64,000 bases of DNA from GCF_054482595.1 NZ_CM137008.1; one strand, 5' to 3'; positions 5,226 to 28,514 are shown, counted from the stretch's first letter. The notes: generated by a model from the sequence alone, not told the origin. Program-made: numbers and translations.

Positions 5226-5235
5226 GGAGAAGATC

Positions 5236-8659: not shown

Positions 8660-9005
8660 TCGGGTTCTTGCCAGTGAGCCAACCTGTTGTTCACTGTCCC
8701 CCATAATTTAGTGAGTGACGGCAACCGTCTGCACGGTGACGAATCGCTGGCGATCAAAAAGGGGCGATATTGAACCGTCGATTATGCTTGTTGAGTGTAC
8801 TCTCAGTAATACTGTAAAGCCGGAGCATGTCTCCGGCTTTACAGTATGGGGGAACAGCGGGAGATCGCTCAAATGGTATGCTGGTTTATTTCATGTAAAA
8901 GAATAAAATATCTGTATAAAATCATGCCACTGGCAATCTGCATCAACTCTCCGGGTAAACAGGGTTAAGATGAGCATTTCCCCGGTTTAATACAGGTATA
9001 CAAAA

Positions 9006-9992
9006 GTGGATAGAGATCAAACAAACAGCAGCCTGTTCAATGATGATCCCGTACTTCATGCAACATGGCTGTACTATCAGGAAGGCAAAAGCCAGACTGA
9101 AGTTGCAGCTATCATGGGGGTGTCCCGCGTCACGGTTGTCAAATACCTGCAAACAGCCCGGGAAAATGGACTGGTTCATATCAACCTGGATGTGAATGTC
9201 TTTGGCTCTATCGACGCTGCTTTGCAAATTCGCGATAAATTCAATCTCCTGAGAGTGATCATCGTGCCGGATGGCGAACATGCCGGAAAACGTGATGATA
9301 CAAAGCTGATGCGGACTCGCCTTTCACGTGCCGGTGGCATGTATCTGAATCAGGTGATTGAGAATGGTGATGTGCTGGGGGTTGCCTGGGGAAGAACAAT
9401 CCATCAGATGAGCAAAACCATGACGCCGAAGTCATGTAAAAATGTCACCGTTATACAGATGCTCGGTTCCATGCCATCTCAGCCAGACCTGACGATCATT
9501 GAATCCTCATCGCAAATCGCCTACAAGCTTTCAGGCCGTGTCGCTTCGCTGCACGTGCCCGCCGTGGTATCAAGCGCCAGACTGGCCATGGAGTTACAGG
9601 CAGAGCCTATTATTCGATCGAATTTTGACGTTCTGACTCGCTGTACGAAAGCCTTTTTTGTCGTGGGTAACACGCTTGATGAAAATCCCCTGATTCGGGT
9701 GGGCGTGCTGAATAAGAAGGAAATGCAGACGTATCGAGATTTAGGCGCAGTAGGTGTCATTTGTGGCCGCTTCTATGACAAGGAAGGGATGCCCGTCGTG
9801 GCTGATGTTGACCAGCGTATTCTGGGAATCAGTCTGGCTCAGTTAAGGCAGATTGAACGGAAGATCTTTCTTGCTGGTGGCGAAAGAGGCTATGACGCAA
9901 CGTTGGGTGCCTTGCTGGGAGGATATGTCACTGACCTGATTGTTGATGAAGGAACGGCAGAGTTTTTGCTGGCGTGTGAATTACCACACTAA
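9006..9992 (+). CDS. yjhU: SorC/DeoR-like sugar-binding transcriptional regulator, YjhU-like
   Basis: N-terminal HTH (SQTEVAAIMGVSRVTVVKYLQTARENGLV) followed by a SorC-type sugar-phosphate-binding domain; GTG start as given by the ORF track; position after yjhF matches K-12 yjhU. Confidence 0.7.
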   Translation: MDRDQTNSSLFNDDPVLHATWLYYQEGKSQTEVAAIMGVSRVTVVKYLQTARENGLVHINLDVNVFGSIDAALQIRDKFNLLRVIIVPDGEHAGKRDDTKLMRTRLSRAGGMYLNQVIENGDVLGVAWGRTIHQMSKTMTPKSCKNVTVIQMLGSMPSQPDLTIIESSSQIAYKLSGRVASLHVPAVVSSARLAMELQAEPIIRSNFDVLTRCTKAFFVVGNTLDENPLIRVGVLNKKEMQTYRDLGAVGVICGRFYDKEGMPVVADVDQRILGISLAQLRQIERKIFLAGGERGYDATLGALLGGYVTDLIVDEGTAEFLLACELPH

Positions 9993-10032: not shown

Positions 10033-11037
10033 TTATTGATTAGCGGCGATAATAAGAACAATACCCACAATGTATGAAATAAACATAGTCAGCAGCAGTT
10101 TATTGGTTCCGGCTGGCGCACTGGCAAATTCTCTCCAGATGAAGACTCCCCAGATCACGGCAATCATTGTGGCACCCTGTCCCAGACCGTAGGAAATGGC
10201 ATAACCCGCCTGACCAGACGCAATCAAACTGAATGCCAGACCGACACACCAAATCATACCGCCCAGCCAGCCGCAAACATGATCCCGTAAACTCCCGGAA
10301 AAATACATTTTCCTGTAGACCGGTTCTCCTGAAATAGGCTTTTTCATGACCAGCGTGTTAAGGACAAAGTTCGACAAAAACAGCCCCACTGCAAACAGAA
10401 CAAGTGCTGAGTACGGCGTCATCAGACCGCTGGCAGGCTGGCTGAAATTGTCAGACATGGAGTCCGCCAGGAAGCGGAAAAACCATCCCATGATGATACC
10501 CGCAAGAATGGCAGTGATGAGGCCTTTGTTACGGCGAGATTTATCCGCCTCCTGCGTGACACGGCCATAGGCTATCGCGGTAAAAATAATGGCGATCACA
10601 ACGCAGGCGACACCGAGGAACAGAATGAGCGGATCGCCCTGCGGATTGCCGATATAGGTGGTGATCACACCCAGAGCCAGTGCCAGCCCCACCCCCACAG
10701 GAAAAGCTACCGCCATACCGGCAAGATTAATAGAAGCCACCAGAAGAATATTGGAAATATTGAAGATAATCCCTGCCAGTATTGCCGACATCAGACTACT
10801 GCTGCTCGCCTGCTGAATATCAGGTATAAAGCTGCGACCGGCTTCGCCCATAGAACCCAGAGTGAAGGCAAATAACAAAGAACACAGCAATAATCCAATT
10901 GAATAATCCCAATAGAATAGAGGGAACTCCCATTTTTTATTACTGACAAGTTTAGTTGTATTCGCCCATGAACCCCAGCAAATCATGGTAATAAAACACA
11001 TTATTATGGCGACAGCATACGATTCCACGATAAACAT
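10033..11037 (-). CDS. Sugar permease (DMT superfamily, RhaT/GlcU-like); candidate 5-deoxyribose/methylthioribose importer of the DHAP shunt cluster
   Basis: 334-aa membrane protein with ~10 transmembrane segments in two repeated halves; last gene of the mtnK-mtnA-ald2 operon on the minus strand. Confidence 0.65.
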   Translation of the reverse strand: MFIVESYAVAIIMCFITMICWGSWANTTKLVSNKKWEFPLFYWDYSIGLLLCSLLFAFTLGSMGEAGRSFIPDIQQASSSSLMSAILAGIIFNISNILLVASINLAGMAVAFPVGVGLALALGVITTYIGNPQGDPLILFLGVACVVIAIIFTAIAYGRVTQEADKSRRNKGLITAILAGIIMGWFFRFLADSMSDNFSQPASGLMTPYSALVLFAVGLFLSNFVLNTLVMKKPISGEPVYRKMYFSGSLRDHVCGWLGGMIWCVGLAFSLIASGQAGYAISYGLGQGATMIAVIWGVFIWREFASAPAGTNKLLLTMFISYIVGIVLIIAANQ

Positions 11038-11140
11038 AAATAACTCCTTGTGGTAGTTACAATCAATCGTTGTGGACAGAGGGCATAACAGCCATTCCTC
11101 GAATGGCTGTTATATGTTATTAATTAAAATAAAGCTGTAA

Positions 11141-11782
11141 TTACGCTTTCAAACCATACGTTTTGAATTTTTCAAGAACGATGGTCATTTCGGCTTCAGA
11201 CAGAACGGGAACATCGTGATGTAATCCGCCACATTTGATGTATAAATCAGCCAGCGTCTCAGTTTCACCCGCCAGCCACAACGTCTTTTCCAGCGTGACG
11301 TCCATGGCCAGCATACCGTGGTGCTGCATCAGTAAGGACTTACTTTCTCTGATTCCTTGAGATACACTGTCGGCCAGTTCAGGGCTGCCAAAGGTATAAT
11401 AGGGAATACAGGGAATATGATCCGTCCCCGATACCGCCACCATATAATGAATAGCCGGAATTGAATGATTATGTATTGCCACCGCCGTGGAATTCACCGC
11501 ATGCGTATGTATGACAGCATTCAATTCTGGTCTGGCTTTATAACACGCCAGATGAAATAGCCATTCACTTGATGGTATTTTACCCGCTTCAGGTATTCCC
11601 TTATCGTCTACAAAGACAATCATGTCCGGCGTCATCTTTGAATAAGCGATCCCACTCGGTGTAATCAACATGCCACCGGTATATCTGGCACTCACATTAC
11701 CTGATGTTCCTTGATTCAGACCTGACGCATTCATTTCCCGACAAATGGAAATGATATTTTCTGCTAACTTAATCCTTTCCAT
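11141..11782 (-). CDS. ald2: Class II aldolase (fuculose-1-P aldolase family); 5-deoxyribulose-1-P / 5-methylthioribulose-1-P aldolase of the DHAP shunt
   Basis: 213-aa class II aldolase/adducin-fold protein with metal-binding His motifs (HTHAVNSTAVA...QHHG); directly downstream of mtnA and mtnK homologues. Confidence 0.8.
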   Translation of the reverse strand: MERIKLAENIISICREMNASGLNQGTSGNVSARYTGGMLITPSGIAYSKMTPDMIVFVDDKGIPEAGKIPSSEWLFHLACYKARPELNAVIHTHAVNSTAVAIHNHSIPAIHYMVAVSGTDHIPCIPYYTFGSPELADSVSQGIRESKSLLMQHHGMLAMDVTLEKTLWLAGETETLADLYIKCGGLHHDVPVLSEAEMTIVLEKFKTYGLKA

Positions 11783-11812
11783 TACTGCTCCTTAACAGAA
11801 GTGATCGTCGTT

Positions 11813-12928
11813 TTAATGCAGCTCGTCCTGGAGTGCTTTACTCTTCAGGTCAGCAAACATATCCGCCAGAGCTGACTTACTGGCAGCACAGACTCCCCGT
11901 TCAGTAATGAGGCCGGTAATGTATCGGGCAGGCGTGACGTCGAAAGCGTAGTTCCCACAACGGGTTCCTTCAGGGGCGGTATTGACCCAGCTCAATTCTC
12001 CCTGAGTATTTATCCCATAGACATGGGACTGCTCTTTTCCGTCACGTTGCTCAATCGGAATGGTTTTTCCGTCCTCGATAGTCCAGTCAATAGTGGGAGA
12101 AGGTAACGCGACGTAGAAGGGAACATGGTTATCATGGGCCGCCAGCGCCTTAAGATAGGTACCAATTTTATTACAGACATCCCCTCTGGCCGTGGTTCGA
12201 TCGGTCCCCACTATACAGAGATCAACGTCACCGTGTTGCATCAGGTGGCCACCCGCATTGTCGGCAATCAGGGTGTGAGGAATACCGTGTGAACCCAGTT
12301 CAAATGCCGTGAGTCCACCCTGATTACGTGGCCGCGTTTCATCCACCCAGACGTGAACAGGGATTCCGTTTTCATGCGCTTTATAGATGGGAGAAAGCGC
12401 GGTTCCCCAGTCTACAGTCGCCAGCCAGCCTGCGTTACAATGTGTCAGGATATTGACCACACTCCCGGCCGATTTTTTCTGGGCTATTTCGCGGATGACT
12501 TCTGCACCATGTAATCCAATTTGTTCACACAACGCGACATCTTCCTCGGCAATTTCTGCCGCCAGCGCCCAGGCCACATCCTTGCGCTCTGATACACAGA
12601 GATCCTTCAGTGTGGCTATCATCCTGTCGAGAGCCCATTTGAGGTTAATTGCAGTTGGTCGGGTTTTGATAAGAAGGTCATAGTAACGCTGCAGACCTAC
12701 GTCACTGGCATTGTGGTTCATTCCCAGTGCGATACCATATGCCGCAACGACACCAATAAGCGGGGCGCCACGAACCCACATCTCCTGAATAGCCGCAGCG
12801 GCCATTTCCGCAGAGGTAAGCGCCACCACTTCAAACTTAAAAGGCAGCTTAGTCTGATCGATGATCTCTACCGCTTTTCCATCCCCGGAAACCCAGACCG
12901 TTCGGTAGTGTTTACCTTTAATATTCAT
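11813..12928 (-). CDS. mtnA: 5-methylthioribose-1-phosphate (5-deoxyribose-1-P) isomerase
   Basis: 371-aa eIF-2B alpha/beta/delta-family protein ([39 protein letters not shown]) typical of MtnA. Confidence 0.85.
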
Positions 12929-12937
12929 AATGACCTC

Positions 12938-14197
12938 TTACTTAACCTTCGCAGACTGGATGACGGAGTCCATATTTTTAAACTGGCGGGCATTGACAAT
13001 AAGATCGCGCGCCATGGTCAATGCACGTCGTTCACATTCTGCGCGAAGCTCTGTATTTTCAATCTGTTTCAGCTCGGCAACGCCAGCAAAACCAATGATC
13101 CGGCGATTCATTTCCATGCCGGCATTCACCAGGGAATCTTCAAGCAGCGTGGCAAAAAACTGATCCTGTGCGTCCTCAAGAGCGGCCCTGTTCTGTTGAT
13201 ACATTTCTGTCGGCCACGCGTCACCCTGTGTTTTGTTGTCCCAGAGCTGGCGGAACTCCCGGGTGAAAACTGACCAGGTGTGGACAATCTGCTGAAGTAG
13301 CCATTCCTGATAGTCAGCGCGACGTTGCTCATTTGCATCCCACCCAGGGCGTGAGAAGAACGCCAGCAGGAGGTTGCCAATATAGTTGCCGATATCAAAC
13401 GCCATTGGTCCCATGAAACCGAACTCCGGATCAATCACTTTGGTATCCGTGTCGGTCACCATGATTGAGCCTGAATGAAGGTCACCATGTAACAATGCCT
13501 GCGCTTCTGTCATAAATTTGTACTTATAACGCATGGCAACCTGGAGCATCTCTACATCAGCCCAGGCCTTATGGACGGCATCGTCCAGCTCAGGAGAAGT
13601 CCAGTTATTCCGTTCCGCGTTGTAATAGGGCTCTGTGAAGATCAGATCTTCCGTAATTTTGCACAGCTCATGATTTAACGCGAACTCAGCAGTAAGCGCT
13701 TTTTTCTGTTCTGCTGACATGCCAATGTCAGACGTATTAAAGAGAGTCTGTGCTAAAAATCTGCCGATATCTTCAGCTAGCTTAGGGAATTTTTTACCGT
13801 TAATCAGTCCCTTACGCAGAATTACGTGAGGCGTCAAATACTCCATGGCAAACAGTGCCATTTCCGGGTCATAAAAATAGACCTGGGGAATCAGTGTGTG
13901 ACCCGCGTACTTGGCTTCCTGACATAAGACGTTGTACTCAAAGCCCGCACGGCTCAGAGATAAAGGCCATCCTTCGCCCCCTGCACGAAGCCAGGGCAGA
14001 GCTTGTTTTACAATGATGGTTTTATGTGTCCCCTTAACGATAAACACCATGTTCAGGTTTCCGTCCCCCACTTCTGAAACTTTCCACTCTTCTGGTAACC
14101 CTCCCGGTTCGCATGAAGGGGTCAGTCTGGACGAGAGATAACCAGGCAGCGTGTCACATGTCAGCGGCTTGTAACCTGATGGAATTGAATCCGTCAT
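12938..14197 (-). CDS. mtnK: 5-methylthioribose / 5-deoxyribose kinase
   Basis: 419-aa protein-kinase-like fold with MtnK hallmarks (EVGDGNLNMVF, HGDLHSGSIMV, KVIDPEFGFMGP). Confidence 0.85.
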   Translation of the reverse strand: MTDSIPSGYKPLTCDTLPGYLSSRLTPSCEPGGLPEEWKVSEVGDGNLNMVFIVKGTHKTIIVKQALPWLRAGGEGWPLSLSRAGFEYNVLCQEAKYAGHTLIPQVYFYDPEMALFAMEYLTPHVILRKGLINGKKFPKLAEDIGRFLAQTLFNTSDIGMSAEQKKALTAEFALNHELCKITEDLIFTEPYYNAERNNWTSPELDDAVHKAWADVEMLQVAMRYKYKFMTEAQALLHGDLHSGSIMVTDTDTKVIDPEFGFMGPMAFDIGNYIGNLLLAFFSRPGWDANEQRRADYQEWLLQQIVHTWSVFTREFRQLWDNKTQGDAWPTEMYQQNRAALEDAQDQFFATLLEDSLVNAGMEMNRRIIGFAGVAELKQIENTELRAECERRALTMARDLIVNARQFKNMDSVIQSAKVK

Positions 14198-15395: not shown

Positions 15396-16508
15396 ATGAA
15401 AAAAATTACAGTGGCACTTTCTGTGGTTGCGGCATCTGTTCTGATGGCAATGTCTGCACAAGCGGCAGAAATCTATAACAAAGACGGTAACAAACTGGAT
15501 CTGTACGGCAAAGTTAATGCAGAGCATTACTTCTCTTCTTCAGCTAGTGATGACGGGGATAAAACTTATGCTCGTATGGGTTTCAAAGGTGAAACTCAGA
15601 TTAATGACCAGTTAACCGGTTTTGGTCAGTGGGAGTACGAATTTAAAGGTAACCGTACTGAAACTGAAGGTTCTGATAAAGATAAAACTCGTCTTGCGTT
15701 TGCAGGGCTTCGCTTTGGCGATTATGGTTCGCTCGACTATGGTCGCAACTACGGTGTAGCTTATGATGTTGGCGCTTGGACTGACGTGCTGCCGGAGTTT
15801 GGTGGAGATACCTGGACTCAGACTGATGTATTTATGACCCAGCGTGCTACTGGCGTAGCGACCTATCGTAACAATGATTTCTTCGGCTTGGTTGATGGTC
15901 TGAACTTTGCTTTGCAGTATCAAGGTAAAAATGATAGTGCTGCAAAAGTGAATAACTGGAAAGGCCGTGACGAAGTTGAATCTAATGGTGATGGCTTTGG
16001 TCTGTCAGCTACTTACGATTATGAGGGATTTGGCGTTGCTGCAACCTATGCAAAATCTGACCGTACTGATGGGCAGGTATCCTATGCTAAAGACAGCCCT
16101 CTGAATGCCTCTGGTAAAACTGCTGAAGTATGGGCTACGGGCCTGAAATATGATGCAAACAACATTTACCTGGCTGCAACTTATTCTGAAACTCAGAATA
16201 TGACAGTCTTCGGTGATGACCATATCGCAAACAAAGCGAAAAACTTTGAAGCTGTTGCTCAATACCAGTTTGATTTCGGCTTGCGTCCGTCCATCGCTTA
16301 CCTACACTCTCGCGGTGAAAATATTGGTGCGTTCGGTAACCAGGATCTAGTTGAATACATCGACGTAGGTGCGACTTATTACTTCAACAAAAATATGTCC
16401 GCTTTCGTTGACTACAAGATCAACCTGATTGATGAAAGTGAATTTACCAAAGCATCTGAGGTTGCAACCGACAACATCGTTGCTGTTGGTATGACCTACC
16501 AATTCTAA
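15396..16508 (+). CDS. Outer-membrane general porin, OmpC/OmpF/PhoE family paralogue
   Basis: Signal peptide followed by [17 protein letters not shown], conserved porin motifs ([25 protein letters not shown]) and C-terminal ...VAVGMTYQF; a Rho-independent terminator follows. Confidence 0.9.
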
Positions 16509-16742: not shown

Positions 16743-17975
16743 ACGTAATGTGGACACGGCCCTAAGCGAGATTATGGTTTTCAAATTGTTCCGGGCTGAG
16801 ACCGCCACAGGCACTGTGACGACGCCAGCGATTGTAATCACACTCGATATAATTAAACACCGTTGCCCGCATTATTTCCCGGCTGCTAAAGCGTTCCCCG
16901 TGGATACATTCCACCTTCAGCGAATGAAAGAAGCTTTCCACACAGGCATTGTCATAACAGTAGCCTTTCGCACTCATACTGCCACGCAGGTTGTGTCGCT
17001 TCAGCAGCGCCTGATAATCCCCTGAACAGTATTGACCACCACGGTCCGTATGAACAATGACGCTTTCCGGGCGTCTTCTCCGCCACAACGCCATTTGCAG
17101 TGCATCACAGGCCAGTTGTGCTGTCATTCGCGGTGACATCGACCAGCCAATGACGGCGCGTGACCACAGGTCGATGACTACTGCGAGATACAACCAGCCC
17201 TCATCGGTACGCAAGTACGTGATGTCACCCGCCCACTTCTGGTTCGGGCCACTGGCGCTGAAGTCCTGCTCCAGCAGATTCTCCAATACGGGCAGACCAT
17301 GTGCACGGTAGCTGACCGGGCTGAACTTCCGGCTGGCTTTCGCCCGCAGCCCCTGACGACGCAGGCTGGCGGCAATGGTTTTAATATTGAACTCCGGCAG
17401 TTCGTCAGCAAGGCGGGGATCACCGTATCGCTGCTTTGCCTCAAAGAATGCCTTATGGACAGCGGCATCGCAGGTGAGCCGAAACTGTTGGCGCAGGCTC
17501 ATCTGGTGACGACGCCTGAGCCAGACATACCAGCCGCTGCGGGCAACCCGAAGTACACGACACATCGCTTTGATGCTGAACTCTGCCCGATGATTTTCGA
17601 TGAAGACATACTTCATTTCAGGCGCTTCGCGAAGTATGTCGCGGCCTTTTGGAGGATGGCCAGTTCCTCAGCCTGCTCCGCCAGTTGTCGTTTAAGGCGG
17701 ACATTTTCAGCGGCCAGTTCGCTTTCGCGCTCTGACGAACTCATTTGTTGCTGCTGTTTACTGCGCCAGGCATAAAGCTGAGATTCATACAGGCTGAGTT
17801 CACGGGCTGCGGCGGCCACACCGATGCGTTCAGCGAGTTTCAGGGCTTCGTTACGAAATTCAGGCGTATGTTGTTTACGGGGTTTCTTGCTGATTGATAC
17901 TGGTTTTGTCATGAGTCACCTCTGGTTGAGAGTTTACTCACTTAGTCCTGTGTCCACTATTGGTGGGTAAGATCA
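16743..17975 (-). mobile_element. IS3-family insertion sequence (IS3-like), ~1.23 kb, orfA/orfB with overlapping frames
   Basis: Terminal inverted repeats TGATCCTACCCACGTAATGTGGACAC (left) and GTGGACACAGGACTAAGTGAGTAAACT...TGATC (right, reverse strand); OrfA (17613-17912) is IS3 InsE-like and OrfB (16762-17616) has the DDE integrase core; the two ORFs overlap as expected for a -1 frameshift. Confidence 0.9.
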
Positions 17976-18244
17976 CGGCGGGGTTAGGTGCGTGCGCTGA
18001 ACAAAATGACGAAGGTAGGAATGCCAGAAAGCGTGCGTATTGCCTGACGGTAGCAACCAGCTGAAGGGATGCTTATCCCCAAACCTGATTTATTCAACAA
18101 AGCCGCTATAGCCTTACCAGAACAATCACCACCTCCCCTGGAGGTGGTCAAGAATACAGCTCTGGCGAGCCGCATACCTTTAATTACCTGCTCTGATTAG
18201 ATAAATCAGATGCAGGTACATAAGTATGCCAGCATTATATGCAA

Positions 18245-19435
18245 TTAACGTTTCCGTCCTGGAAATACAAATAGTGCAATAACGGGAGATATTACCATCA
18301 GAACAAAAACATAGGTAAATCCAAGTGTAAATCCGCCTGTTAGATCGACCGACCAGCCAATTAACTGACTGTTTATCGTTGCCAAAATAAATGTACAAAC
18401 CCAGAAGGTGGACATTGAATAAGTAACAGTTTGGGTATTCGCATTTTTTTGTTCTTCTTTTGGAATGGAGAAGATGAATGCAAACCAGGTGGCAAAAATA
18501 GAACCCGTCAAAAACGAACAAACCAATATAACGATATCATTAGTGGCAAATAACATTGCAAAGGTTGTAATAGCCATAAAGATACTGGAAATAAATAGCC
18601 ATGATTTATAATTATACCCACGGTTTTTAAAGTACGGCCCCATCAATGCACCAAGTAAAATTCCCACCTGATTGACTGTGCCACTCAAGTGAGCACAGGA
18701 GTCAGGGGGAAGATTAGCATATTTTGCATAGTACAGAGGCAGAAATGTGAACATAAAAATCATCATGATCATTGCCCCAGCATACTGAATAATCATTCCC
18801 CAGACAATACGATTAAACAATACATCCTTTAATACAGATATTCGCTGTTCATAACTTATAGATATATGGCTATTCTGTTGTTGCTCTTCATCCGTGAAAC
18901 ATATTATCCAGACAACCCCCAATATTAACGTAATTATTCCATAGATAGCTAACAGATTACGCCACCCGTTGAACAGCAGTGATAAATAACCTGCCAATGT
19001 CAATGCAATAATTGTACCGATAATATTTGAAGTGCAATTTATACTATTTAATGTTGACGCCATTTTGTTATCGAAAAAGCGAGCAACCGTGGGCACCAGT
19101 GATACAAGGCAAATAGCCCCCCCCAGCCCACCAAGAAAACGAATAATCAATAACAAAGTAAAGTTATTAATAAATGGAATGAGCAAGGAGCTCCCAATCA
19201 TTATACATCCAAGAAAATAGGATTTTCGGGTGCCGAGCCGGGAAACAAAGACTGCAGTACAAACAGCTCCCACAATTTTAGCCCATAAAATTACATTTGA
19301 CATCAATGCAGCATGTGATACATCAACATTAAAATCACTCATAATTTGTGGCATTACGGCCCCTGTCGTAGCCCAGGCGGCACCAAATACCATATAAACG
19401 GTGTAAAGAATGAATTCAATGACCCATTTTTTCAT
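18245..19435 (-). CDS. MFS transporter
   Basis: 396-aa protein with ~12 predicted transmembrane helices; low-GC codon usage; start overlaps the stop of the upstream peptidase gene by 4 nt. Confidence 0.7.
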   Translation of the reverse strand: MKKWVIEFILYTVYMVFGAAWATTGAVMPQIMSDFNVDVSHAALMSNVILWAKIVGAVCTAVFVSRLGTRKSYFLGCIMIGSSLLIPFINNFTLLLIIRFLGGLGGAICLVSLVPTVARFFDNKMASTLNSINCTSNIIGTIIALTLAGYLSLLFNGWRNLLAIYGIITLILGVVWIICFTDEEQQQNSHISISYEQRISVLKDVLFNRIVWGMIIQYAGAMIMMIFMFTFLPLYYAKYANLPPDSCAHLSGTVNQVGILLGALMGPYFKNRGYNYKSWLFISSIFMAITTFAMLFATNDIVILVCSFLTGSIFATWFAFIFSIPKEEQKNANTQTVTYSMSTFWVCTFILATINSQLIGWSVDLTGGFTLGFTYVFVLMVISPVIALFVFPGRKR

Positions 19436-20685
19436 TTTTGTACCTCAGGGACACTTAGCTCAACCATTTCCAGCAGCATTTCACTGGCAAGACGCAGGGA
19501 TTCCACAGGCAAAAACTCTCTGGTTGAGTGAAAATTGTGCGCCCCTGTAAATATATTAATAGTAGGCAGCCCTTTTGGGGTGATGACGCTACCATCATAA
19601 CCACCGCGCATAATCAGTGGTTTTGGTGTAATGCCAAGGTTACGCATTGCCTTTCTAACGTTATCTAAGATTGCAGGTGTTTTATCAAGCGCTGGTTTGA
19701 CATTTTCATATATATCGGTTAACACTAATGTTATTCTTTCACTCTTCCAGCGCTGATTAATACTCTTAACAATGTTCTCGAGTACGGCTTTACGTTGTTT
19801 ATATCCTGTTAACTCAAAGTCCCGAATAGCAATATCAAGCGTGGCGCTGGCTGTATCACCATGGAGATTATGGACCCAATAATATCCTTCCCGTTTTTCA
19901 GTATGCTCAGGCCTTTCTTTTTCAGGTAATGCGGCGATAATTTCCGTTGCTATACACAACGCATTAACAAGCTTACCTTTAGCACTCATTGGATGTGCTG
20001 TAACACCACGAACTGTAATTCGTGCACTACCTGCATACCAGTTTTCAACAACATATTCTCCAATCTCACAACAGTCGAGACAGATACCAAAATCAGAATT
20101 CAGTTCACCAACATCAAGCGCTTTTGCCCCTCTGATACCGGTCTCCTCATCAGGCAAAAGAACAAGACGAATATCACCATGAGAAAAGGAGGGTGTATTA
20201 ATCATATATTTGAGAGCTTCAACACCTGCTGCAATGGCAGCTTTGTCGTCAGCCCCCAGCAAGCTGGTGCCATCAGTTACAATAATATCCTGACCGATAT
20301 AGTTGAGTAGTTCTGGATTATCCTGTGGGGATAGTTTTTCCACACTCCCTGCAAACGGTATAGCACCTCCGTTATACTTTTTCACTCGGAAAGCATGTGT
20401 ATCTGTACTGTGGTCCGGAGCTGTATCAAGGTGTGCAAAGAATACGATAGAAGGTGCATCAGGAATATTAGCGGGTAAATGAATTGTGGCAATAGCATTT
20501 TCTTTTATGCTTGTTTGTACCTCTGGAACATCAGAAAATTGATTTACAACATATTCTGCCAGTTTATATTGATTTTTACAGCTTGGAAGCTCCTTGCTAC
20601 CATCAACCGATGTCGTATTTATTTTTGTGTAATATAAAAAAGTCTCAATTATTTTCTCTAAGTCAATGCGTTTTTTCATGATCAT
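19432..20685 (-). CDS. M20-family metallopeptidase, peptidase T (tripeptidase)-like
   Basis: 417-aa protein with M20 metal-binding and catalytic motifs (FFAHLDTAPD, LGADDKAAIAAGVEAL, LLPDEETG); low GC. Confidence 0.75.
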   Translation of the reverse strand: MIMKKRIDLEKIIETFLYYTKINTTSVDGSKELPSCKNQYKLAEYVVNQFSDVPEVQTSIKENAIATIHLPANIPDAPSIVFFAHLDTAPDHSTDTHAFRVKKYNGGAIPFAGSVEKLSPQDNPELLNYIGQDIIVTDGTSLLGADDKAAIAAGVEALKYMINTPSFSHGDIRLVLLPDEETGIRGAKALDVGELNSDFGICLDCCEIGEYVVENWYAGSARITVRGVTAHPMSAKGKLVNALCIATEIIAALPEKERPEHTEKREGYYWVHNLHGDTASATLDIAIRDFELTGYKQRKAVLENIVKSINQRWKSERITLVLTDIYENVKPALDKTPAILDNVRKAMRNLGITPKPLIMRGGYDGSVITPKGLPTINIFTGAHNFHSTREFLPVESLRLASEMLLEMVELSVPEVQK

Positions 20686-20889
20686 ATACCTAATTGTTTA
20701 CTATCAATATCCTGACTATCTATATTTAGATAATATCCTGCAAAAATTAGTGAGTATAGAAAAGGTCGTCAGTTCCTGACTGGTAAATGTCCCTTCGAGA
20801 TTTATTAGAGTCATAATTTGCCTCATCCCAATACAAAAAACAATACGAAAGTATGAAAAAGTGTAGTGATCAACAAAATATTGCCACGT

Positions 20890-20967
20890 TTGTTTCGGTG
20901 TTATTGGAGAGGTTTTTGGTGTTTTGTCCTTACGAGCATCACGCAGTTGTTTGCCCCATCTTGTCAT
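20890..20967 (-). pseudogene. IS911-like OrfA fragment
   Basis: Translation [26 protein letters not shown] matches the central region of IS911-type OrfA; the rest of the ORF is not transposase-like. Confidence 0.45.
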
Positions 20968-21120
20968 CGTGGAAAGGCGACATCAATAGCTTGGTGTAAC
21001 TCTGGTCAACAACCAGTTGCACGGAGTTGCATATGAATTCAGGAGCTTTTCACTGGTGCACCTATATTGGCATATCTGAACCGCCCCGGAAATCCTGGAG
21101 ACTAAACTCTCTGAGAAAGA

Positions 21121-21189
21121 GGCAAACAGGATGACTAAAAAAACACGTTTTTCCCCCGAAGTCCGTCAACGGGCAGTTCAATGCTTTGT
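21121..21189 (+). pseudogene. IS629/IS3411-like OrfA N-terminal fragment
   Basis: MTKKTRFSPEVRQRAVQCFVE followed by a stop; resembles the IS629-type OrfA N-terminus MTKNTRFSPEVRQRAV. Confidence 0.45.
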
Positions 21190-21602
21190 CGAATAAACAT
21201 TTACCTGAACGATTAACTGCAACGGCTATCCTTACCGACAATCAACGTCAATAAAAATCTGTACTGACTCGTCAGCACTGGGTTCGATCAGTAGGAACAT
21301 GAATTCAAAGGCCTCCTTGCTGAATCTCAAGACTCCTCCGATTCCAAAGATAAACCCCGTCTTAAGTTCGCTGGCCTGAAATTCGGTGACTATTGTCTAT
21401 ATCGGGATCACCACGGTTGTGTGATTAATCATCGTCGATCATAAAGCGTCTATGGATGTACTGCGGCGTTCCTGCTACTGGTGATCACCCTGTGGTTGTG
21501 CAATTCCAAACGGATGAAGCGAGAGTAACAGACATCACGCCGCAATCGGGGGCGGCGTGTAGACGTGGTTAATTACTATCAAATATATTAATCAGGCCGA
21601 TT

Positions 21603-23054
21603 CTATTTGCTTTCATTTATGGTTTCCATCATGAGCTGTTGCTGCTTTTCTTTGGACAGTCGAGCGATACCAAAGCCTGTGAACCCCCACAGCGTCGCAA
21701 AGAAAATGCCACTCCAGCAGAGAATAGCCCACGGAAGATAGCTTAATGTAGCAACGCCAAGTGTACCTGCCATGTAGGCACCCGCGGCAGTCCAGGGCAG
21801 AATTGGTTCAAATATGGTGGCAGAGTCTTCTACAGTCCTTGCCAGATTTTTTGGATGTAGGCCGCGCTCAATATAAGCACTTCGTAGCATTTCAATCGGA
21901 ATCAGGATTGATATCTGACCATTACAGGTCACGCTAATCATTGTTAAACCACAGGCAATAGTCGCAAGAATCATGGTTCCTGTGGAATGAACTAATTTGA
22001 GCAGATTATGGACGATGACTTCTAAAGCGCCGCTCAAGGCTAATGTTCCTGCAAATGAAAGGGCGCAGAAACAAATAAGCAACGTACTCATCATCGAGTT
22101 CATGCCACCGCGGTTTAACAAATTACCTAATAGCGGATTAACATCTTTATCGGTAAGCATTGAAACGTTAAATCCGTCTACTGCACTTTTAACAATGTCG
22201 TGTAGTGCGAACCCCTGAATAACGCTGGCGTTGATCATGGCTACCAGTGCCGAAACAAGCATAATTGGAATGGTTGGTTTCTTGGTAATCGAACCGTACA
22301 GGACAATGGCAATGGGTAGCAATAACAATAAATTAAAATGATAAATTCCTTTTAATCCTTCAGTGATTAGCTGAATTTTTTCGGGAATGGTTGAGCCGCC
22401 GAGCTCGCCATTCATCCCATAGAGCGTCATAACAAAGGCTGACAGTATCAATGAAGGAAGGGTTGTATAAAGTAAATGAGCGATGTGTTCATAGAGATCT
22501 ATCTGGGCTGCCATTGCGGCTAAGTTAGTATCACCAGAAAGGGGAGACAGTTTGTCCCCGAAGTAAGCCCCTGCCACAATAGCGCCTGCAGTTGCTGCCA
22601 GATTAGCCTCCATTCCGATAGCCACACCCATAAACGCAACACCGACGGTGCCTGCGGATCCCCAGGATGTCCCTGTGCATACAGAAACGACGGCAGTAAC
22701 GAGCAGGGCCGTCACATAGATCATGGAAGGATTTATCAGAATAAGGCCGTAATAAATCATCAGCGGAATAGTACCGCCTATCATCCATGTCCCAATCAGG
22801 AGGCCCACGCTGATCAAAATTAGCAGAGCAGGCATTGTTTTAGCGATTTTCTGCGATATTGATTCAAGGATTGCATTGTAGCCATACCCCAACCGCTTAA
22901 CTAACAGTGCAGCAATGACGGTTGAAAGAACCATTAATGGCTCAGGTGGCAGATCGAATGCCGCATAACCAAATCCCAGCAATAGTATCATCGCTAGTAT
23001 TGGTAATAATGATTCCACCAGAGTTGGGGATCTTGGAGTATTGTTATTATTCAT
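21603..23054 (-). CDS. NhaC-family Na+/H+ antiporter-type transporter (possible amino-acid or organic-acid carrier)
   Basis: ~480-aa polytopic membrane protein with NhaC-like topology; likely start MNNNNTPRSP at 23054, immediately after the stop of the upstream C-S lyase; low GC. Confidence 0.7.
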   Translation of the reverse strand: MNNNNTPRSPTLVESLLPILAMILLLGFGYAAFDLPPEPLMVLSTVIAALLVKRLGYGYNAILESISQKIAKTMPALLILISVGLLIGTWMIGGTIPLMIYYGLILINPSMIYVTALLVTAVVSVCTGTSWGSAGTVGVAFMGVAIGMEANLAATAGAIVAGAYFGDKLSPLSGDTNLAAMAAQIDLYEHIAHLLYTTLPSLILSAFVMTLYGMNGELGGSTIPEKIQLITEGLKGIYHFNLLLLLPIAIVLYGSITKKPTIPIMLVSALVAMINASVIQGFALHDIVKSAVDGFNVSMLTDKDVNPLLGNLLNRGGMNSMMSTLLICFCALSFAGTLALSGALEVIVHNLLKLVHSTGTMILATIACGLTMISVTCNGQISILIPIEMLRSAYIERGLHPKNLARTVEDSATIFEPILPWTAAGAYMAGTLGVATLSYLPWAILCWSGIFFATLWGFTGFGIARLSKEKQQQLMMETINESK

Positions 23055-24225
23055 GAAGGGAAACTCCTGTAGTGAAGGGGATGCTCTGATAAATCCGTTC
23101 AAATGCTTGTGTAAGATTGCTTCTCGGCGTGGCTATGTTCACACGGAAAAAACCAAGTCCTTCATCGCCAAAATCTGATCCCCAGCTCATCTCAACACCT
23201 GCGAGCGAGACAAACCAATGGCGTAGTTGCTCTTCGCTGATGTTCATTGCCCGGTAGTCGATCCACAACATGTAAGTTCCGCCACCAGAGGCGACAAACC
23301 AGTCTGGAAAATGAGCTTGGCAGAATGATTGAACCCAGCTCCTGTTTTCGACCAAATAATCTTTTAATGCTGCTAACCAAGAATCGCCATGGCGGTAAGC
23401 ACAGAGAAATGCAGGAACAGAGAAATAACCAGGATTATGGATACCTGCTGCAATAAGAGCTAATTTAAACTGTTCACGATATTTATCGTTAGCAATAACA
23501 ATATTTGCGATTTCAAGTCCGGCCATATTAAAAGTTTTTGCTGGAGATGTACAAATAAACGAGTTTTGTGCAACGTATGAGCTTATAGAAGAAATTGTTT
23601 GATGTTGTTTTTGGGTGAAGTTGAAGTCTGCATGAACATCATCAGAAATAATAAAAACATTATATTTTTCTGCTAATGAAGCTATTTTCCTTAGATTGTC
23701 TTCTGACCAGATTGTTCCTGTTGGATTATGCGGCGATATTAGAATGAAACAACAAGCCATTTTAAACTTATCTTCGAGATCCGCAAAGTCTATTTCATAG
23801 TGGTGGTCACGATAAAGTAACGCACTTTCCAGCAATACTCGATGGTTGACTTCAACTGCATGACTAATAGGATGATAGGCTGGTGCCAGGCTGACAATAG
23901 CATCTCCCGGTTGGGTAAAGTTCTGGATAAATAATGAGACGGCCTGTACTACCCGTGGGCAAAAAACAATGTGTTCAGGGTTGACCTTCCACGAGTAATG
24001 GCGTTGATACCACTGTGCTGCCACTTGCTGCCAGTCATCACTTAATAATGTATAACCGTAGATACCTTTCTGATTTGCGACAGATAATTCAGAAACTATA
24101 AAATCAGCTACAGGAATATCCATATCAGCTACAGACAGGGGAATGATGTCACGCCCCTTGTTATTATATTTAGCGCTATAGGTTCCGTCGCGTGAAATAA
24201 CTTTATCAAAATTATAAACTTTCAT
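23047..24225 (-). CDS. PLP-dependent aminotransferase class I/II enzyme, PatB/MalY-type cysteine-S-conjugate / cystathionine beta-lyase
   Basis: Likely start MKVYNFDKVISRDGTYSAKYN; typical MalY/PatB features (SVADMDIP, aminotransferase fold); first gene of a low-GC minus-strand cluster. Confidence 0.75.
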   Translation of the reverse strand: MKVYNFDKVISRDGTYSAKYNNKGRDIIPLSVADMDIPVADFIVSELSVANQKGIYGYTLLSDDWQQVAAQWYQRHYSWKVNPEHIVFCPRVVQAVSLFIQNFTQPGDAIVSLAPAYHPISHAVEVNHRVLLESALLYRDHHYEIDFADLEDKFKMACCFILISPHNPTGTIWSEDNLRKIASLAEKYNVFIISDDVHADFNFTQKQHQTISSISSYVAQNSFICTSPAKTFNMAGLEIANIVIANDKYREQFKLALIAAGIHNPGYFSVPAFLCAYRHGDSWLAALKDYLVENRSWVQSFCQAHFPDWFVASGGGTYMLWIDYRAMNISEEQLRHWFVSLAGVEMSWGSDFGDEGLGFFRVNIATPRSNLTQAFERIYQSIPFTTGVSLHE

Positions 24226-24657
24226 ATTTGTTACTCGCCCGGTTTTATCGTTAGGGTAATGTAATATTTCGAGGGAGGAAGTGTTATTCTGTATTTTGTT
24301 TTCGTTATTATGAAAATTTGCATATGTGATGTTTATCACAAAGATGTTAACTATCTGTCAATAAAAAGACTCCAGCAAATGTAAACGTTTTACATCGCTT
24401 AAGCCTATGGAATTTACATAAAAAAAGGGCGTGCCGAGTCTTTCGACCCAATCATTATCTCGGTAACTCCATTCACAAGAGCAGGAAATAACCTCTTCAA
24501 CAAATAACAGACTGATGCCTGCGAGCGCGCTCCCCAGGTTTCCGGGCTGAAAGTACCGCCGCACTCGTTTAACGCGGAACAGTCTGTGTTGGCGGTTTAA
24601 TGGTGGATGTTGCTGTAGACCACAACTGATGAGGCAACGGAGTTTACCGTGATGATT

Positions 24658-25839
24658 CCTATTTATCATTTTCTGGTCAGTGCCGCGATTCTGGTATTCA
24701 TGGTGATTTTCTGTCAGACACGCCATCGCGACCACCGTAACTGGCTGGCTCTGCTGCTATTCGTATTATGATCTGTAAACAGCTGGCCATTGCGGATGGT
24801 TAAAGGAACAATTGTGGGGACAACTGACACATTGCGTAAAATGCAGCGTTATGAACAACTGAGTCAGCACGGGGCTGACAGCTGGAAAATCCTGCTGGGA
24901 GCACCGTTATATGACACGATTGTTATTGTCACTAGTGAGAGTGTGCGCAGGAATTATATGACAGCGTATGGCTATCCCGTATCAACCACACCGTGGCTGA
25001 ATATGGCACCCGGTTTATTTATTGACGGTTATAACTCGACAGCCTCCAGTACTGTGCCTTCCCTGAGCCGGACACTGATTTATGACTATGAGCAGCCCCC
25101 TGATTCCGACAACAACGTGGTGGCGCTGGCAGCAAAAGCAGGATACAGCACATAGTGGATATCCAATCAGGGAAAACTGGGGGAGTATGACACACGCATC
25201 TCTGTTATTGCTTCTGATGCGGAGCATACCGCTTTCCTCAAGAAAGGCAGCTTCGCTTCCCGTAAAACAGATGACAAACTGTTGTTACAGGAAACAGAAC
25301 GTGCGCTGGCGGATACATCCTCTCCGAAGATAATTTTCCTGCACATGATGGGTTCTCATCCAAATCCGTGTGACAGCCTTAACTCCTGGCCGAATAATTA
25401 CCTGGAGCAGTATCCCCGAAAAATTGCCTGTTACCTCGCCAGCATCAGTAAACTGGATAACTTTCTTGGCCAGCTTGATGGTATCCTTCGCCGGTACTCA
25501 CGTCATTTCGCCATGCTTTACTTTTCTGGCCTTGGGCTGTCGGTCAGCGACAGTGCTAATCCTGTTCATCATGATGGTCATGTGCAGGGGGGCTACAGCG
25601 TTCCCCTGATTATTACCGCCAGTGACATCACGTCTCATCAGTCCGTCAGCAGGAAAATCAATGCCCGTAATTTCGCAGGCATTTTTCAGTGGCTGACCGG
25701 TATTCGTACCGAAAATATAACGCCATTCAATCCGCTGACAGACGAAGATAATGAACCCGTTATGGTTTTTAACGGAGAGAAAAATGTGCCGGCAGACAGT
25801 CTGAAACCGCAGCCACTTATTCTTCCGGACCACAGGTAA
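24658..25839 (+). pseudogene. Phosphoethanolamine transferase (sulfatase-family, EptA/YhbX-like) pseudogene, truncated and frameshifted
   Basis: Two adjacent ORFs in different frames (24790-25155 and 25282-25839) carry sulfatase-domain motifs (YGYPVSTTPWLN; IIFLHMMGSHPNP); a short transmembrane peptide is encoded just upstream; the N-terminal membrane domain is missing. Confidence 0.55.
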
Positions 25840-26162: not shown

Positions 26163-27428
26163 TTACTGTTTTAATGGATTATTAATCTTTGCATATTCAA
26201 ATGGACTGATAAATTTTTCTCTGTTTGCATCCAGAAAATCGGCCCACCATTGTAGCATCAAGCGGCGTTCTTCCAGATGCTCTGCTTTATGAATGTAAGC
26301 AGCACGTACACCGTTACGTTCCTGATGGCTCATCTGACGTTCCACAGCATCGCGGGACCACAAACCTGATTCAATCAATGCACTGCACGCCATCGCCCGG
26401 AATCCATGGCCACAGACTTCCTGGGTTGTGTCATACCCCATCACCCTCAGGGCTTTATTTACAGTATTTTCACTGATTGGTTTACGCGGGTCATGTGCAC
26501 CCGTAAATATCAGACCATTTTCACCTGCCCATGTCTGAAGTTCTGTCAGTATGGCTACAGCCTGTTTGCTGAGTGGCACAAGATGTGGTGTTCGCATCTT
26601 GGAGCCCCGGTGTGAGAATTTTACGCCTGGCAGAGGTTCGCGTTCGGCTGGAATAGTCCACTTGGCATTGTCAATATCAATTTCAGACCAGCGGGCATAT
26701 CTGAGTTCACTGGAACGAATAAAAACCAGTAAATTCAGCATAACTGCCAGTCGGGTGACAGGCTGGCCTTTATAACCGTCAATACGCGACAGAAGTTCAG
26801 GCAAGCGTGAAAGATCCAGAGCAGGGCGATGCTGGCGTTTTACCGTGGTCAATGCACCAGCCATATCCAGAGCCGGGTTATATCTGATGATGCCTGACTG
26901 TACGGCATAACGCATTACAGCAGATATTCTTTGCTGCAGACGACTGGCGATTTCATAAATTTGTTTTGCTTCTGCAGCACGAACAGGGATAAGCAGATCC
27001 GGGGTATTGAGTGTTGTGATATCCCGGTTGCCGATAAAGGGGAAAACGTGTGTCTCGAGGCTTTTGAGTACTTTATCGCTGTGTGATTGTGCCCATTGTT
27101 TATTACTGGCATGCCAGCGTCGTGCAATATGTTCAAAAGAGAGCTGTAAATCAGGGACAACTTTTTTAACTCTTTTCTGTTCGCAAGGGTCAATCCCTTC
27201 TGAAATCAGTTTTCGGGCCTCATCCCGTTTTGTACGAGCTTCGGAGAGAGAAACTTCTGGATACACACCAAGTGCCAGAGTCTTCTCCTTACCCAGAATA
27301 CGATAACGGAGACGCCAGTAACGGGAACCATTAGGATGAACCAGCAGGAACATGCCGGCCCCGTCAGTGAGTTTATAAGCCTTGTCAGTGGGCTTTGCAG
27401 CCCGGATTTTTGCGTCAGTCAGTGCCAT
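26163..27428 (-). CDS. int: Tyrosine site-specific integrase, P4-type (island integrase)
   Basis: 421-aa protein with the P4-integrase N-terminus MALTDAKIRAAKPTDKAYKLTDGAGMFLLVHPNGSRYWRLRY and the C-terminal catalytic domain; lies ~200 bp from the 3' end of tRNA-Phe. Confidence 0.95.
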   Translation of the reverse strand: MALTDAKIRAAKPTDKAYKLTDGAGMFLLVHPNGSRYWRLRYRILGKEKTLALGVYPEVSLSEARTKRDEARKLISEGIDPCEQKRVKKVVPDLQLSFEHIARRWHASNKQWAQSHSDKVLKSLETHVFPFIGNRDITTLNTPDLLIPVRAAEAKQIYEIASRLQQRISAVMRYAVQSGIIRYNPALDMAGALTTVKRQHRPALDLSRLPELLSRIDGYKGQPVTRLAVMLNLLVFIRSSELRYARWSEIDIDNAKWTIPAEREPLPGVKFSHRGSKMRTPHLVPLSKQAVAILTELQTWAGENGLIFTGAHDPRKPISENTVNKALRVMGYDTTQEVCGHGFRAMACSALIESGLWSRDAVERQMSHQERNGVRAAYIHKAEHLEERRLMLQWWADFLDANREKFISPFEYAKINNPLKQ

Positions 27429-27625
27429 AGTTCAGCCTTCTGAATGCGTTAAAGAGGGTACAAATTCTGTCGAACTGGGGTATACCCGCAATTATACCCA
27501 CACAATGAGGTTGATGTGGGGGGAATCTGGTTGAGTTCGGTAGAATTGATTTGGAGGCAGAACGCTTAAATTGTGGCGTTCTGAAACGAAAAACGGACCT
27601 CCGTGGAGGTCCGTTGATATGAATT

Positions 27626-27701
27626 TGGTGCCCGGACTCGGAATCGAACCAAGGACACGGGGATTTTCAATCCCCTGCTCTACCGACTGAGCTATCCGGG
27701 C
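27626..27701 (-). tRNA. pheV: tRNA-Phe (GAA)
   Basis: Reverse complement reads GCCCGGATAGCTCAGTCGGTAGAGCAGGGGATTGAAAATCCCCGTGTCCTTGGTTCGATTCCGAGTCCGGGCACCA, which is E. coli tRNA-Phe with CCA end. Confidence 0.97.
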
Positions 27702-27806
27702 AACGGGGCGCATTAAACCTGATTCGCCTCGTCTCGTCAATCAAATTTCTTCAATTTACTGCAGACTGCACAATCTATCATCACTTTGCCGCTATTGCAC
27801 GCATTG

Positions 27807-28514
27807 TCAGGCAAACCAGGCGGTCCAGGCGGCGGAAAGCGGCATTGCCAGAAGGAGTGCTGGAAGCATGTTGACCACCGGGAACATTTTAATGCCACAG
27901 ATGCGTAATCCGGTTGCCAGCAGCAATAAACCGCCTACGGCGCTGAAGTCTGCCATCATCGACGGTGTGGTCAGCGGTAATATCAGCGTGGCAGCCCACG
28001 CCAGCGTTAACTGGATGATCAGTAATGGGATACTAATCACCGATACCGCAATACCCAGCGAGCAGGCGAAGATCATCGCCGTAAAGAAATCAAGAAATGA
28101 CTTGGCGATTAAAATACTCGGATCGCCGGTCATCCCTTCGTTCATCGCCCCGAAGATCCCGGTGCCGCTGGCGCAAAACAGGACAATAATCGCGACATAA
28201 TTCTGAATAAAAGATTCATGCGCTGGCTTCTTACGTGAGTGACGAAACAGATTTTGTGCTTTGGCGACCGCTGTATTGACGCCTTTCTCCAGCAGACAAA
28301 TTTCGCCGATTAATGCTCCGAGTAAGGTTGCTAAAACCATCGCCGGAAGGTTGGCGCATTTCACCACCAGTAAAATACCAATCCCCAGCGATGCCAGACC
28401 AAAAATTGATGTCATGGAGACGCGGATACGTTCCGGTAAGCGTTGGCTAAGCAGTGCACCGAGCATGCCACCCAGTAATATTGCACTTGCGTTGATAAAA
28501 GGGCCGATGACCAC
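27807..28514 (-). CDS. yqgA: DUF554 inner-membrane protein YqgA
   Basis: 235-aa membrane protein; matches K-12 YqgA and its position next to pheV. Confidence 0.9.
   Translation of the reverse strand: MVIGPFINASAILLGGMLGALLSQRLPERIRVSMTSIFGLASLGIGILLVVKCANLPAMVLATLLGALIGEICLLEKGVNTAVAKAQNLFRHSRKKPAHESFIQNYVAIIVLFCASGTGIFGAMNEGMTGDPSILIAKSFLDFFTAMIFACSLGIAVSVISIPLLIIQLTLAWAATLILPLTTPSMMADFSAVGGLLLLATGLRICGIKMFPVVNMLPALLLAMPLSAAWTAWFA

Follow-up and report, generated by a model that had tools for sequence, protein, structure and literature searches.

Two separately mobile gene pairs in an Escherichia coli tRNA-Phe island: patB-nhaC, a predicted accessory of the xylose regulon, and pepT2-MFS

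Beta-lyases of the PatB/MalY family have been characterized in several bacteria, and these enzymes cleave thioethers such as cystathionine, lanthionine, djenkolate and S-methylcysteine or its sulfoxide (PMC7385124; PMC11203769). MalY of Escherichia coli also represses the maltose regulon, and does so independently of catalysis (PMC11203769). The Staphylococcus hominis enzyme (ShPatB) owes its thioalcohol specificity to an apolar pocket, with Tyr25 and Phe274 (PMC7385124). With respect to xylose, the published XylR operator consists of two direct repeats that end in AAT and adjoin the -35 region (PMC3561964). Here we describe four minus-strand genes at positions 18245–24225 of a 64,000-nucleotide (nt) stretch of DNA (NZ_CM137008.1, assembly GCF_054482595.1), referred to below as the window. 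They encode a PatB/MalY-family lyase and an NhaC-family transporter (patB-nhaC, or cassette A), and a peptidase T paralog and a major facilitator superfamily (MFS) transporter (pepT2-MFS, or cassette B). The four genes are two separately conserved and separately mobile two-gene operons, and in many host-associated bacteria patB-nhaC belongs to the xylose regulon as a conserved accessory.

Each of the four proteins falls into a known family. The patB gene (23047–24225, minus strand), the first gene of cassette A, encodes a pyridoxal phosphate (PLP)-dependent beta-lyase of fold type I that scores 369.2 bits with the whole-protein hidden Markov model TIGR04350, whose cutoff is 340. It is followed by nhaC (21603–23054, minus strand), which encodes a transporter of the NhaC family in the IT superfamily (TIGR00931, 593 bits, cutoff 370; Pfam Na_H_antiporter, PF03553, 199 bits). 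In cassette B, the first gene is pepT2 (19432–20685, minus strand), a peptidase T paralog of the M20B tripeptidase family (NF009920, 455 bits, cutoff 293; TIGR01882, 319 bits, cutoff 286); the prokaryotic genome annotation pipeline places its start at 20679, and the open reading frame at 20685. The second gene encodes the MFS transporter (18245–19435, minus strand; Pfam MFS_1, 124 bits). RefSeq gives the same annotation to identical copies of the four genes. Thus, the positions, strand and family assignments made in a preliminary description of the window, which was drawn from the sequence alone, agree with the reading-frame calls, the curated models and RefSeq. That description also remarked on the low guanine-plus-cytosine (GC) content of the cluster, and the fraction is indeed 0.417 for the four-gene region, compared with 0.473 in other parts of the island and 0.515 in the core (MFS gene 0.38, pepT2 0.41, nhaC 0.45, patB 0.41). 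The reported 4 nt overlap (ATGA) between the pepT2 stop and the MFS start is present. The lyase stop codon was said to abut the nhaC start; the two are in close contact, but they do more than abut, as the genes share 8 nt (ATGAATAA), which suggests translational coupling.

The preliminary description considered that the genes might represent either one disrupted operon or two acquisitions, and the evidence is for two acquisitions, since the pairs occur independently. Among 5426 complete E. coli genomes, patB-nhaC is found at an identity of at least 99% in 378, or about 7%, both on chromosomes and on plasmids, and carriers include UTI89 and a sequence type 131 (ST131) strain. The pepT-MFS pair is present in only 23–24 genomes, in 9 of them at an identity of at least 99% and in 14–15 at 87%. 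The 87% version is mostly on plasmids of ~62 kb, on which it has no lyase nearby and is flanked by insertion sequence (IS) IS91 and transposase remnants and by a sucrose-type locus. All four genes are adjacent in just nine genomes. The four of these that were examined (Santai, GTEN_97, Rb-50 and SM107) have one gene order, mtnK, tnpB', ompC, ISEc16, MFS, pepT, psiE', nhaC, patB, and this common order points to one junction in a common ancestor. Strains UTI89 and SCU-176 have patB-nhaC between other IS remnants, near a cutC microcompartment locus.

Outside E. coli, one genome per species (GTDB) was scanned with an alignment of PatB relatives, and 80 recovered loci were searched, over 10 kb on either side, with the four window proteins. 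PepT2 or MFS homologs were found within 10 kb of the PatB relative in none of the 80 loci. Homologs of pepT2 with 63–75% identity, followed directly by the MFS gene, are present in Buttiauxella, Salmonella, Vibrio and Aeromonas, where the neighbouring genes are unrelated and include no lyase; a 57% homolog has no MFS gene downstream. The co-occurrence check suggested in the preliminary description thus finds the four genes together nowhere beyond the nine E. coli genomes, an outcome that the description had named among those that would count against its reading. The two pairs became neighbours by chance as the island was assembled, when IS traffic juxtaposed them in a few E. coli strains, and it should be pointed out that neighbouring positions on a mosaic island do little to establish a pathway.

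Within cassette A, the pairing is strict. Of the 61 loci with a PatB of at least 41% identity, 55 encode NhaC as the next gene downstream, with a median gap of 43 nt between the aligned PatB and NhaC segments. The NhaC identities in related loci range from 52 to 82% and track those of PatB (r=0.89). Where PatB identity is below 41%, no locus (0/18) has NhaC downstream of PatB; in one of the 18, an NhaC-family gene with 30% identity is found upstream, on the opposite strand. The pair is found in Proteus, Providencia, Zophobihabitans, an enterobacterium and more than a dozen genera of Pasteurellaceae, and the families spanned also include Orbaceae and Morganellaceae. Klebsiella oxytoca, Pluralibacter and Serratia carry cassette A as well, and the Gram-positive representatives are Paenibacillus, Lederbergia, Lachnoanaerobaculum (Lachnospiraceae) and Anaerococcus. 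The patB-nhaC pair is an ancient, co-inherited unit distributed across three phyla-level groups. Klebsiella indica has patB with a CRP/XylR-type site and no NhaC homolog downstream, and is one of four assessable loci with a broken pair.

The neighbourhood of the pair points to xylose. A xyl gene (xylA, xylB or xylR) is located within 10 kb in 35 of the 61 loci. When all neighbouring open reading frames were clustered, xylose genes were the sole families that recur across lineages, with xylA in 35 loci, xylB in 28, xylR in 26 and xylFGH in 22–28. The arrangements differ between taxa. In Proteus, the pair is read divergently from xylR and heads the operon (xylR<>patB-nhaC-xylA-xylB, where successive genes are 6, 10 and 71 nt apart), in Pasteurella multocida the order is xylBA<>patB-nhaC-xylFGH-xylR, and in Serratia rubidaea xylR<>patB-nhaC is found beside xylHGF<>xylAB. 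In Lachnoanaerobaculum and Anaerococcus the pair is no more than 5 kb from xylA; Anaerococcus loci also have xylB, and xylFGH-type ATP-binding cassette (ABC) transporter genes are present in Lachnoanaerobaculum and in one Anaerococcus locus. Paenibacillus has a different four-gene unit in 16–18 loci, which consists of a YheO-PAS/HTH_22 regulator gene, patB, nhaC and a RidA gene. Among the neighbours in Lachnoanaerobaculum, Proteus, Klebsiella and Pluralibacter, no shared glycosidase or glycosaminoglycan-degrading genes were found. The strict pairing of PatB with NhaC, its embedding in xyl operons of several phyla and the XylR/CRP promoter of the E. coli island copies appear not to be described in the searchable literature. 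In a pan-genome-wide association study of nontypeable Haemophilus influenzae, xylA, xylB and an 'NhaC family' gene are among 24 genes enriched in bloodborne isolates (PMC11932112).

The region upstream of patB carries what appears to be a xylose-type promoter. A perfect CRP-type palindrome (TGTGATAAACATCACA; 24325–24340, minus strand) has the spacing of the CRP-like site of K-12 xylA, and is followed by a predicted XylR operator (24286–24323, minus strand) whose two direct repeats both end in AAT and have a spacing of 21 nt; the operator is situated 60 nt upstream of the patB ATG. This layout is that of PxylA in the K-12 xylA-xylF intergenic region, i.e. a CRP-type site, 18 nt to the first AAT end and 21 nt to the second, and the patB site fits the XylR repeat consensus (PMC3561964). 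A stretch of about 60 nt upstream of patB is conserved with the DNA of Klebsiella and Zophobihabitans, and the alignment shows an invariant GTGAT-N6-TCACA and then CATAATAAC-N13-GAATAAC. Conserved copies of the site precede patB in Klebsiella, Pluralibacter, Proteus, Providencia, Zophobihabitans and Serratia. The composite pattern of a CRP site and two AAT ends 21 nt apart has one match in the 64-kb window (24286–24340, minus strand) and none in 100 shuffles; a slightly relaxed version has 26 matches in 1.73 Mb of fetched loci, all upstream of patB, xylA or xylF. A weight matrix for XylR, built from only eight xylA- or xylF-side sites that include the two K-12 sites, ranks 24286–24323 first on either strand of the window, at 24.5 bits, with the next best at 14.8. 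In the loci of K. oxytoca, K. indica and Pluralibacter, which have no adjacent xyl genes, the site ahead of patB is likewise the top hit of this matrix. From the sequence, the resident XylR and CRP are thus predicted to activate the island copy of cassette A. A tblastn search of the window for a remnant of xylR, xylA or xylB next to patB found none, and the pseudogene that precedes patB does not resemble xylR.

The lyase keeps the conserved catalytic residues of its family. Its PLP lysine, K230 in the motif SPAKTFN, aligns with the lysine of the APSKTFN motif of Bacillus subtilis PatB (BsPatB), which is Lys234 (PMC7385124), and the carboxylate-binding R361 (FFRVN) is conserved in both the ingroup and the outgroup. 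The nearest solved relatives are Clostridioides difficile 4DGT (268 bits) and BsPatB 6QP3 (249 bits). MalY (1d2f) scores just 193 bits, which puts the lyase outside the housekeeping MalY/MetC group, as the preliminary description supposed; ShPatB, at 163 bits, ranks fifteenth among solved relatives. A comparison of 58 NhaC-linked sequences with 17 unlinked relatives reveals nine invariant or near-invariant positions that are rare or absent outside the clade: C89, R91, Q94, N127, D200, F201, H263, E331 and S347. R91 takes the place of a glycine in an S-P-G-V loop. By an approximate, alignment-based mapping, the segments of R91 and H263 correspond to segments lining the ShPatB pocket, and on the same mapping alone the clade residues R91, Q94, H263 and N127 are polar, in contrast to the apolar pocket of ShPatB. 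RidA is the enamine/imine deaminase that removes 2-aminoacrylate, and is the usual partner of enzymes that release this compound. The presence of RidA in the Paenibacillus operon therefore argues that the lyase carries out a genuine alpha,beta-elimination on a serine- or cysteine-derived substrate.

For the transporter, the name NhaC is a family label rather than a demonstrated activity. The family includes amino-acid and organic-acid exchangers, and MetT is a further known or predicted amino-acid carrier within it. A model for the arginine/ornithine exchanger ArcD scores 286 bits on the window protein. A sequence search of solved structures yielded no hits, and no close relative that is solved or characterized was found.

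The reading that we favour, and that we hold to be reasonably probable, is that the locus consists of two unrelated two-gene operons within the mosaic of a pheV island, cassette A being an import-and-beta-lyase unit of the xylose regulon and cassette B an independent peptide unit. IS-mediated rearrangement would have placed the operons side by side in the tRNA-Phe (pheV) island. Under the CRP and XylR promoter, which would drive cassette A in E. coli, the NhaC-family carrier would import an amino-acid-type conjugate, and the PatB-family PLP enzyme would cleave it by alpha,beta-elimination to give pyruvate, a leaving group and, by way of 2-aminoacrylate, ammonia. Probably xylose itself, or something that feeds its catabolism, is the leaving group, because the pair is promoter-proximal in unrelated xyl operons and its promoter was kept after relocation. 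In cassette B, the MFS carrier would move a small peptide-like compound and the peptidase T paralog, which is apparently intact as a catalyst, would trim the same compound.

Perhaps cassette A serves to salvage O-beta-D-xylosyl-L-serine, the stub left from degradation of host proteoglycans. This proposal derives from gene context and, at present, is rather unlikely to be correct. The NhaC protein would import the glyco-amino acid and PatB would beta-eliminate its C-O bond to produce D-xylose, pyruvate and ammonia, whereby the released D-xylose would both induce and feed XylAB. To our knowledge, O-xylosyl-serine, which is found in the proteoglycan linkage region and occurs in human urine, is the only natural compound that joins xylose to an amino-acid beta-carbon; literature searches found no paper on its use by bacteria. 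If true, this salvage would explain the polar signature residues in the pocket region, and also the place of the pair as first cistrons in xyl operons of bacteria that are uropathogens or live only as commensals of animals, namely Pasteurellaceae, Proteus, oral Lachnospiraceae and Anaerococcus, and its presence in islands of extraintestinal pathogenic E. coli (ExPEC).

Several observations weigh against a xylose-linked conjugate pathway. The Paenibacillus loci have no xylA within 10 kb and have a different regulator, and given these loci the core function of cassette A may be independent of xylose. In E. coli, K. oxytoca and Pluralibacter, the cassette has no physical linkage to xyl genes. At 24.5 bits, the E. 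coli site falls short of the 35–46 bits of the training sites, so that its recognition by E. coli XylR is not certain. NCBIfam rates the transporter as an NhaC 'equivalog', which at face value makes it a Na+/H+ antiporter. In addition, the Proteus and Zophobihabitans loci encode no other xylose transporter, and the carrier might move xylose itself. The last point can be extended to a proposal in which the NhaC protein is the xylose or xyloside carrier and PatB is a general lyase of cysteine, cystathionine or cystine, accompanying it in a sulfur or redox housekeeping role when cells grow on pentoses. The xyl loci of Proteus and Zophobihabitans, which lack XylFGH and XylE within 10 kb and have NhaC as the sole transporter, are what this would predict. 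Most other xyl-linked loci also have xylFGH, however, and the invariant coupling to a lyase and the RidA gene are left unexplained. We know of no member of the NhaC-type transporter superfamily that carries neutral sugars, and consider the proposal distinctly unlikely. Equally doubtful is a role like that of MalY, in which the PatB homolog would modulate a sugar regulator such as XylR, with the lyase activity incidental and NhaC an ordinary Na+/H+ antiporter. MalY is a PatB-family lyase that is encoded with a sugar transporter gene and represses the maltose regulon without catalysis (PMC11203769), and cassette A is promoter-proximal in xyl operons. Yet the pair is strictly maintained next to unrelated regulators, i.e. 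the AraC/periplasmic-binding-protein (PBP)-type XylR, another AraC type in Lachnoanaerobaculum and the YheO type in Paenibacillus; RidA in the Paenibacillus operon and the invariant clade residues, which are in active-site segments and not on the surface alone, also argue against moonlighting.

A generic scavenger of sulfur amino acids (cystathionine, lanthionine, djenkolate, S-methylcysteine or its sulfoxide), with xylose control as a signal of 'plant material present', would agree with the cleavage of such thioethers by known PatB and MalY enzymes (PMC7385124; PMC11203769). It would also suit the clade-specific Arg91, which could bind a distal carboxylate, and the amino-acid carriers known or predicted in the NhaC family, e.g. 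ArcD. It is nevertheless unlikely, as it does not explain why obligate animal commensals (Pasteurellaceae, oral Lachnospiraceae and Anaerococcus) have the pair inside their xyl operons, and the clustering of neighbouring reading frames revealed no conserved sulfur-metabolism genes nearby. The single pathway favoured in the preliminary description, in which a cysteine S-conjugate or thioether peptide is imported, trimmed by the peptidase and cleaved at the C-S bond as in the Staphylococcus thioalcohol route, is very improbable. It is true that nine genomes have the four genes side by side on one strand, that the lyase is a bona fide PatB-family member and that the peptidase keeps its conserved metal-site motifs. 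However, the pairs are inherited separately in E. coli (378 compared with 23–24 genomes, and together in 9), and they are unlinked both in the 80 other PatB loci, where PepT2 and MFS homologs are absent, and in five other pepT2 contexts, where pepT2-MFS stands without the lyase pair. Within the window, an IS3 fragment, a psiE remnant and a hairpin lie between them, and patB-nhaC has a CRP/XylR-type promoter of its own. The lyase is no near relative of ShPatB and has polar residues at its clade-specific positions, and PepT enzymes are tripeptidases rather than Cys-Gly dipeptidases.

Cassette B is a conserved pair separate from cassette A. PepT2 is 48% identical to the housekeeping PepT of E. 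coli (P0238) and aligns over its full length with PepT 1FNO (260 bits). In this alignment the motifs HVDT, GADDKA, PDEE, VD and NYH retain their H, D, EE, D and H, which we take to be the metal and catalytic residues of PepT. The MFS gene always directly follows pepT2 in relatives with at least 63% identity, and the conserved overlap of the two genes suggests a transport-then-trim unit, perhaps for a small peptide-like compound with a free N-terminus. No NCBIfam MFS subfamily model is above its cutoff for the MFS protein, the best being TIGR00893 (ACS/D-galactonate type) with 83.8 bits against 395, and a sequence search of solved structures found no relatives. A cross-genus comparison of the regions upstream of pepT2 provides no convincing shared regulatory element beyond the two E. 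coli versions. A GC-rich, terminator-like hairpin ~100 nt downstream of the MFS gene (18128–18148, minus strand), which was found as a pattern match in a consensus scan, may be where cassette B ends.

The stretch that separates the two pairs was initially described as IS debris from 20690 to 21600. This is not the case, as only ~21065–21180 is of IS origin, an end fragment of an IS3-family element (IS629/IS1203-like) at the cassette junction. Thousands of IS3-family transposase matches at 91–97% are confined to positions 380–494 of the spacer query. The region upstream of pepT2 (20686–21064) is unique to the nine genomes that have pepT-MFS at this place. The segment ~21077–21602, on the other hand, accompanies patB-nhaC in other strains, including those that carry patB-nhaC only. 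It contains a psiE pseudogene remnant (21395–21528, plus strand; RefSeq annotation of identical DNA), which travels with patB-nhaC in every E. coli context examined, and a GC-rich hairpin (21536–21559, minus strand), 44 nt past the nhaC stop and with a weak T-run, which is a possible terminator of cassette A.

The island ends at a tRNA-Phe gene (27626–27701), and the adjoining gene is 99% identical to K-12 yqgA, which identifies the insertion site as pheV. Strains GTEN_97 and SM107 have this island, with the same P4-type integrase, at pheU (the dicD/dsbD side), but in the window (26163–28514) it is at pheV (the yqgA side). Strain Santai has different genes after the integrase. In SM107, a frameshift splits patB, and the integrase is also frameshifted. 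Upstream of patB, at 24457–25839, there is a short frameshifted pseudogene together with an EptA-like phosphoethanolamine-transferase pseudogene that has internal stops; the copy of this EptA-like gene is intact in SCU-176, which has the same island type.

Other parts of the island are of interest with respect to sugar metabolism. Positions 4266–9992 contain yjhH/yjhG/yjhF/yjhU-like genes, including those for a DapA-family aldolase and a GntP permease, and a match to the D-xylonate dehydratase YjhG/YagF of 1207 bits. This oxidative xylonate module is ~15 kb from the cassette with the xylose promoter and represents a second xylose-related module in the island. A minus-strand group at 10033–14197 consists of mtnK, mtnA, a FucA-like aldolase gene and a GRP-type transporter gene, and presumably resembles the 5-deoxyribose/methylthioribose 'DHAP (dihydroxyacetone phosphate) shunt' cluster of ExPEC. 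Neither the mtnK/mtnA cluster nor the yjh xylonate genes belong to the patB-nhaC unit, as patB-nhaC has entirely different neighbours in UTI89, SCU-176 and others. An extra gene for an OmpC-family porin (15396–16508; NF007841, 532 bits) lies between a degraded TnpB-like pseudogene and ISEc16 (16762–17912).

Genes that are labelled 'MalY/PatB' and 'Na+/H+ antiporter' thus make up a xylose-linked unit that islands and plasmids have spread to ~7% of complete E. coli genomes. Identification of the substrate would give a function to two widely mislabelled gene families. It could also explain the purpose of xylose genes in bacteria that never meet plant xylan, and could reveal a host-derived nutrient for urinary and respiratory pathogens. 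Interest would rise sharply if the substrate were a host glyco-amino acid.

How do these gene pairs compare with known systems? The malX-malY operon of E. coli resembles cassette A in that a PatB/MalY-family PLP lyase is co-transcribed with a transporter and tied to a sugar regulon. It differs in having a phosphotransferase system (PTS) transporter and control by MalI, whereas cassette A has an NhaC-family transporter and CRP and XylR-like elements, and its lyase scores only 193 bits to MalY. The thioalcohol pathway of S. hominis has in common with the window a PatB-family lyase that acts, or here would act, after import of a conjugate, and a peptidase and transporters in the same organism. 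The S. hominis peptidase is a dipeptidase, whereas here there is a PepT tripeptidase paralog, and the transporters are of other families; furthermore, the peptidase/MFS pair and the lyase pair are inherited separately, ShPatB is a weaker match to the lyase than generic PatB, and the apolar pocket typical of ShPatB (Tyr25, Phe274) finds no support in the lyase. A functional set of peptidase, transporter and lyase of the Staphylococcus type is thus not what the window contains, as the pairs are independent and none of the 80 PatB loci links them.

At the level of single proteins, the lyase shares its PLP lysine and carboxylate-binding arginine with BsPatB (6QP3) and C. difficile 4DGT. The outgroup lacks Cys89, Gln94, Asn127 and His263 of the clade, and Arg91 of the clade replaces a conserved glycine. 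PepT2 belongs to the same M20B family as Salmonella and E. coli PepT (1FNO, 1VIX), with an alignment over the full length and metal-site motifs that are kept. Unlike PepT, it is a mobile paralog at 48% identity, carried by plasmids and islands and followed by an MFS gene. With respect to gene control, the closest likeness is to the E. coli xylAB/xylFGHR regulon, as the patB promoter has a matching architecture and the spacing of PxylA. No paper found describes patB-nhaC as members of the xylose regulon. In other bacteria, patB and nhaC are the first genes of a xylAB or xylFGH operon, whereas the E. coli cassette is found on a mobile island, far from xyl.

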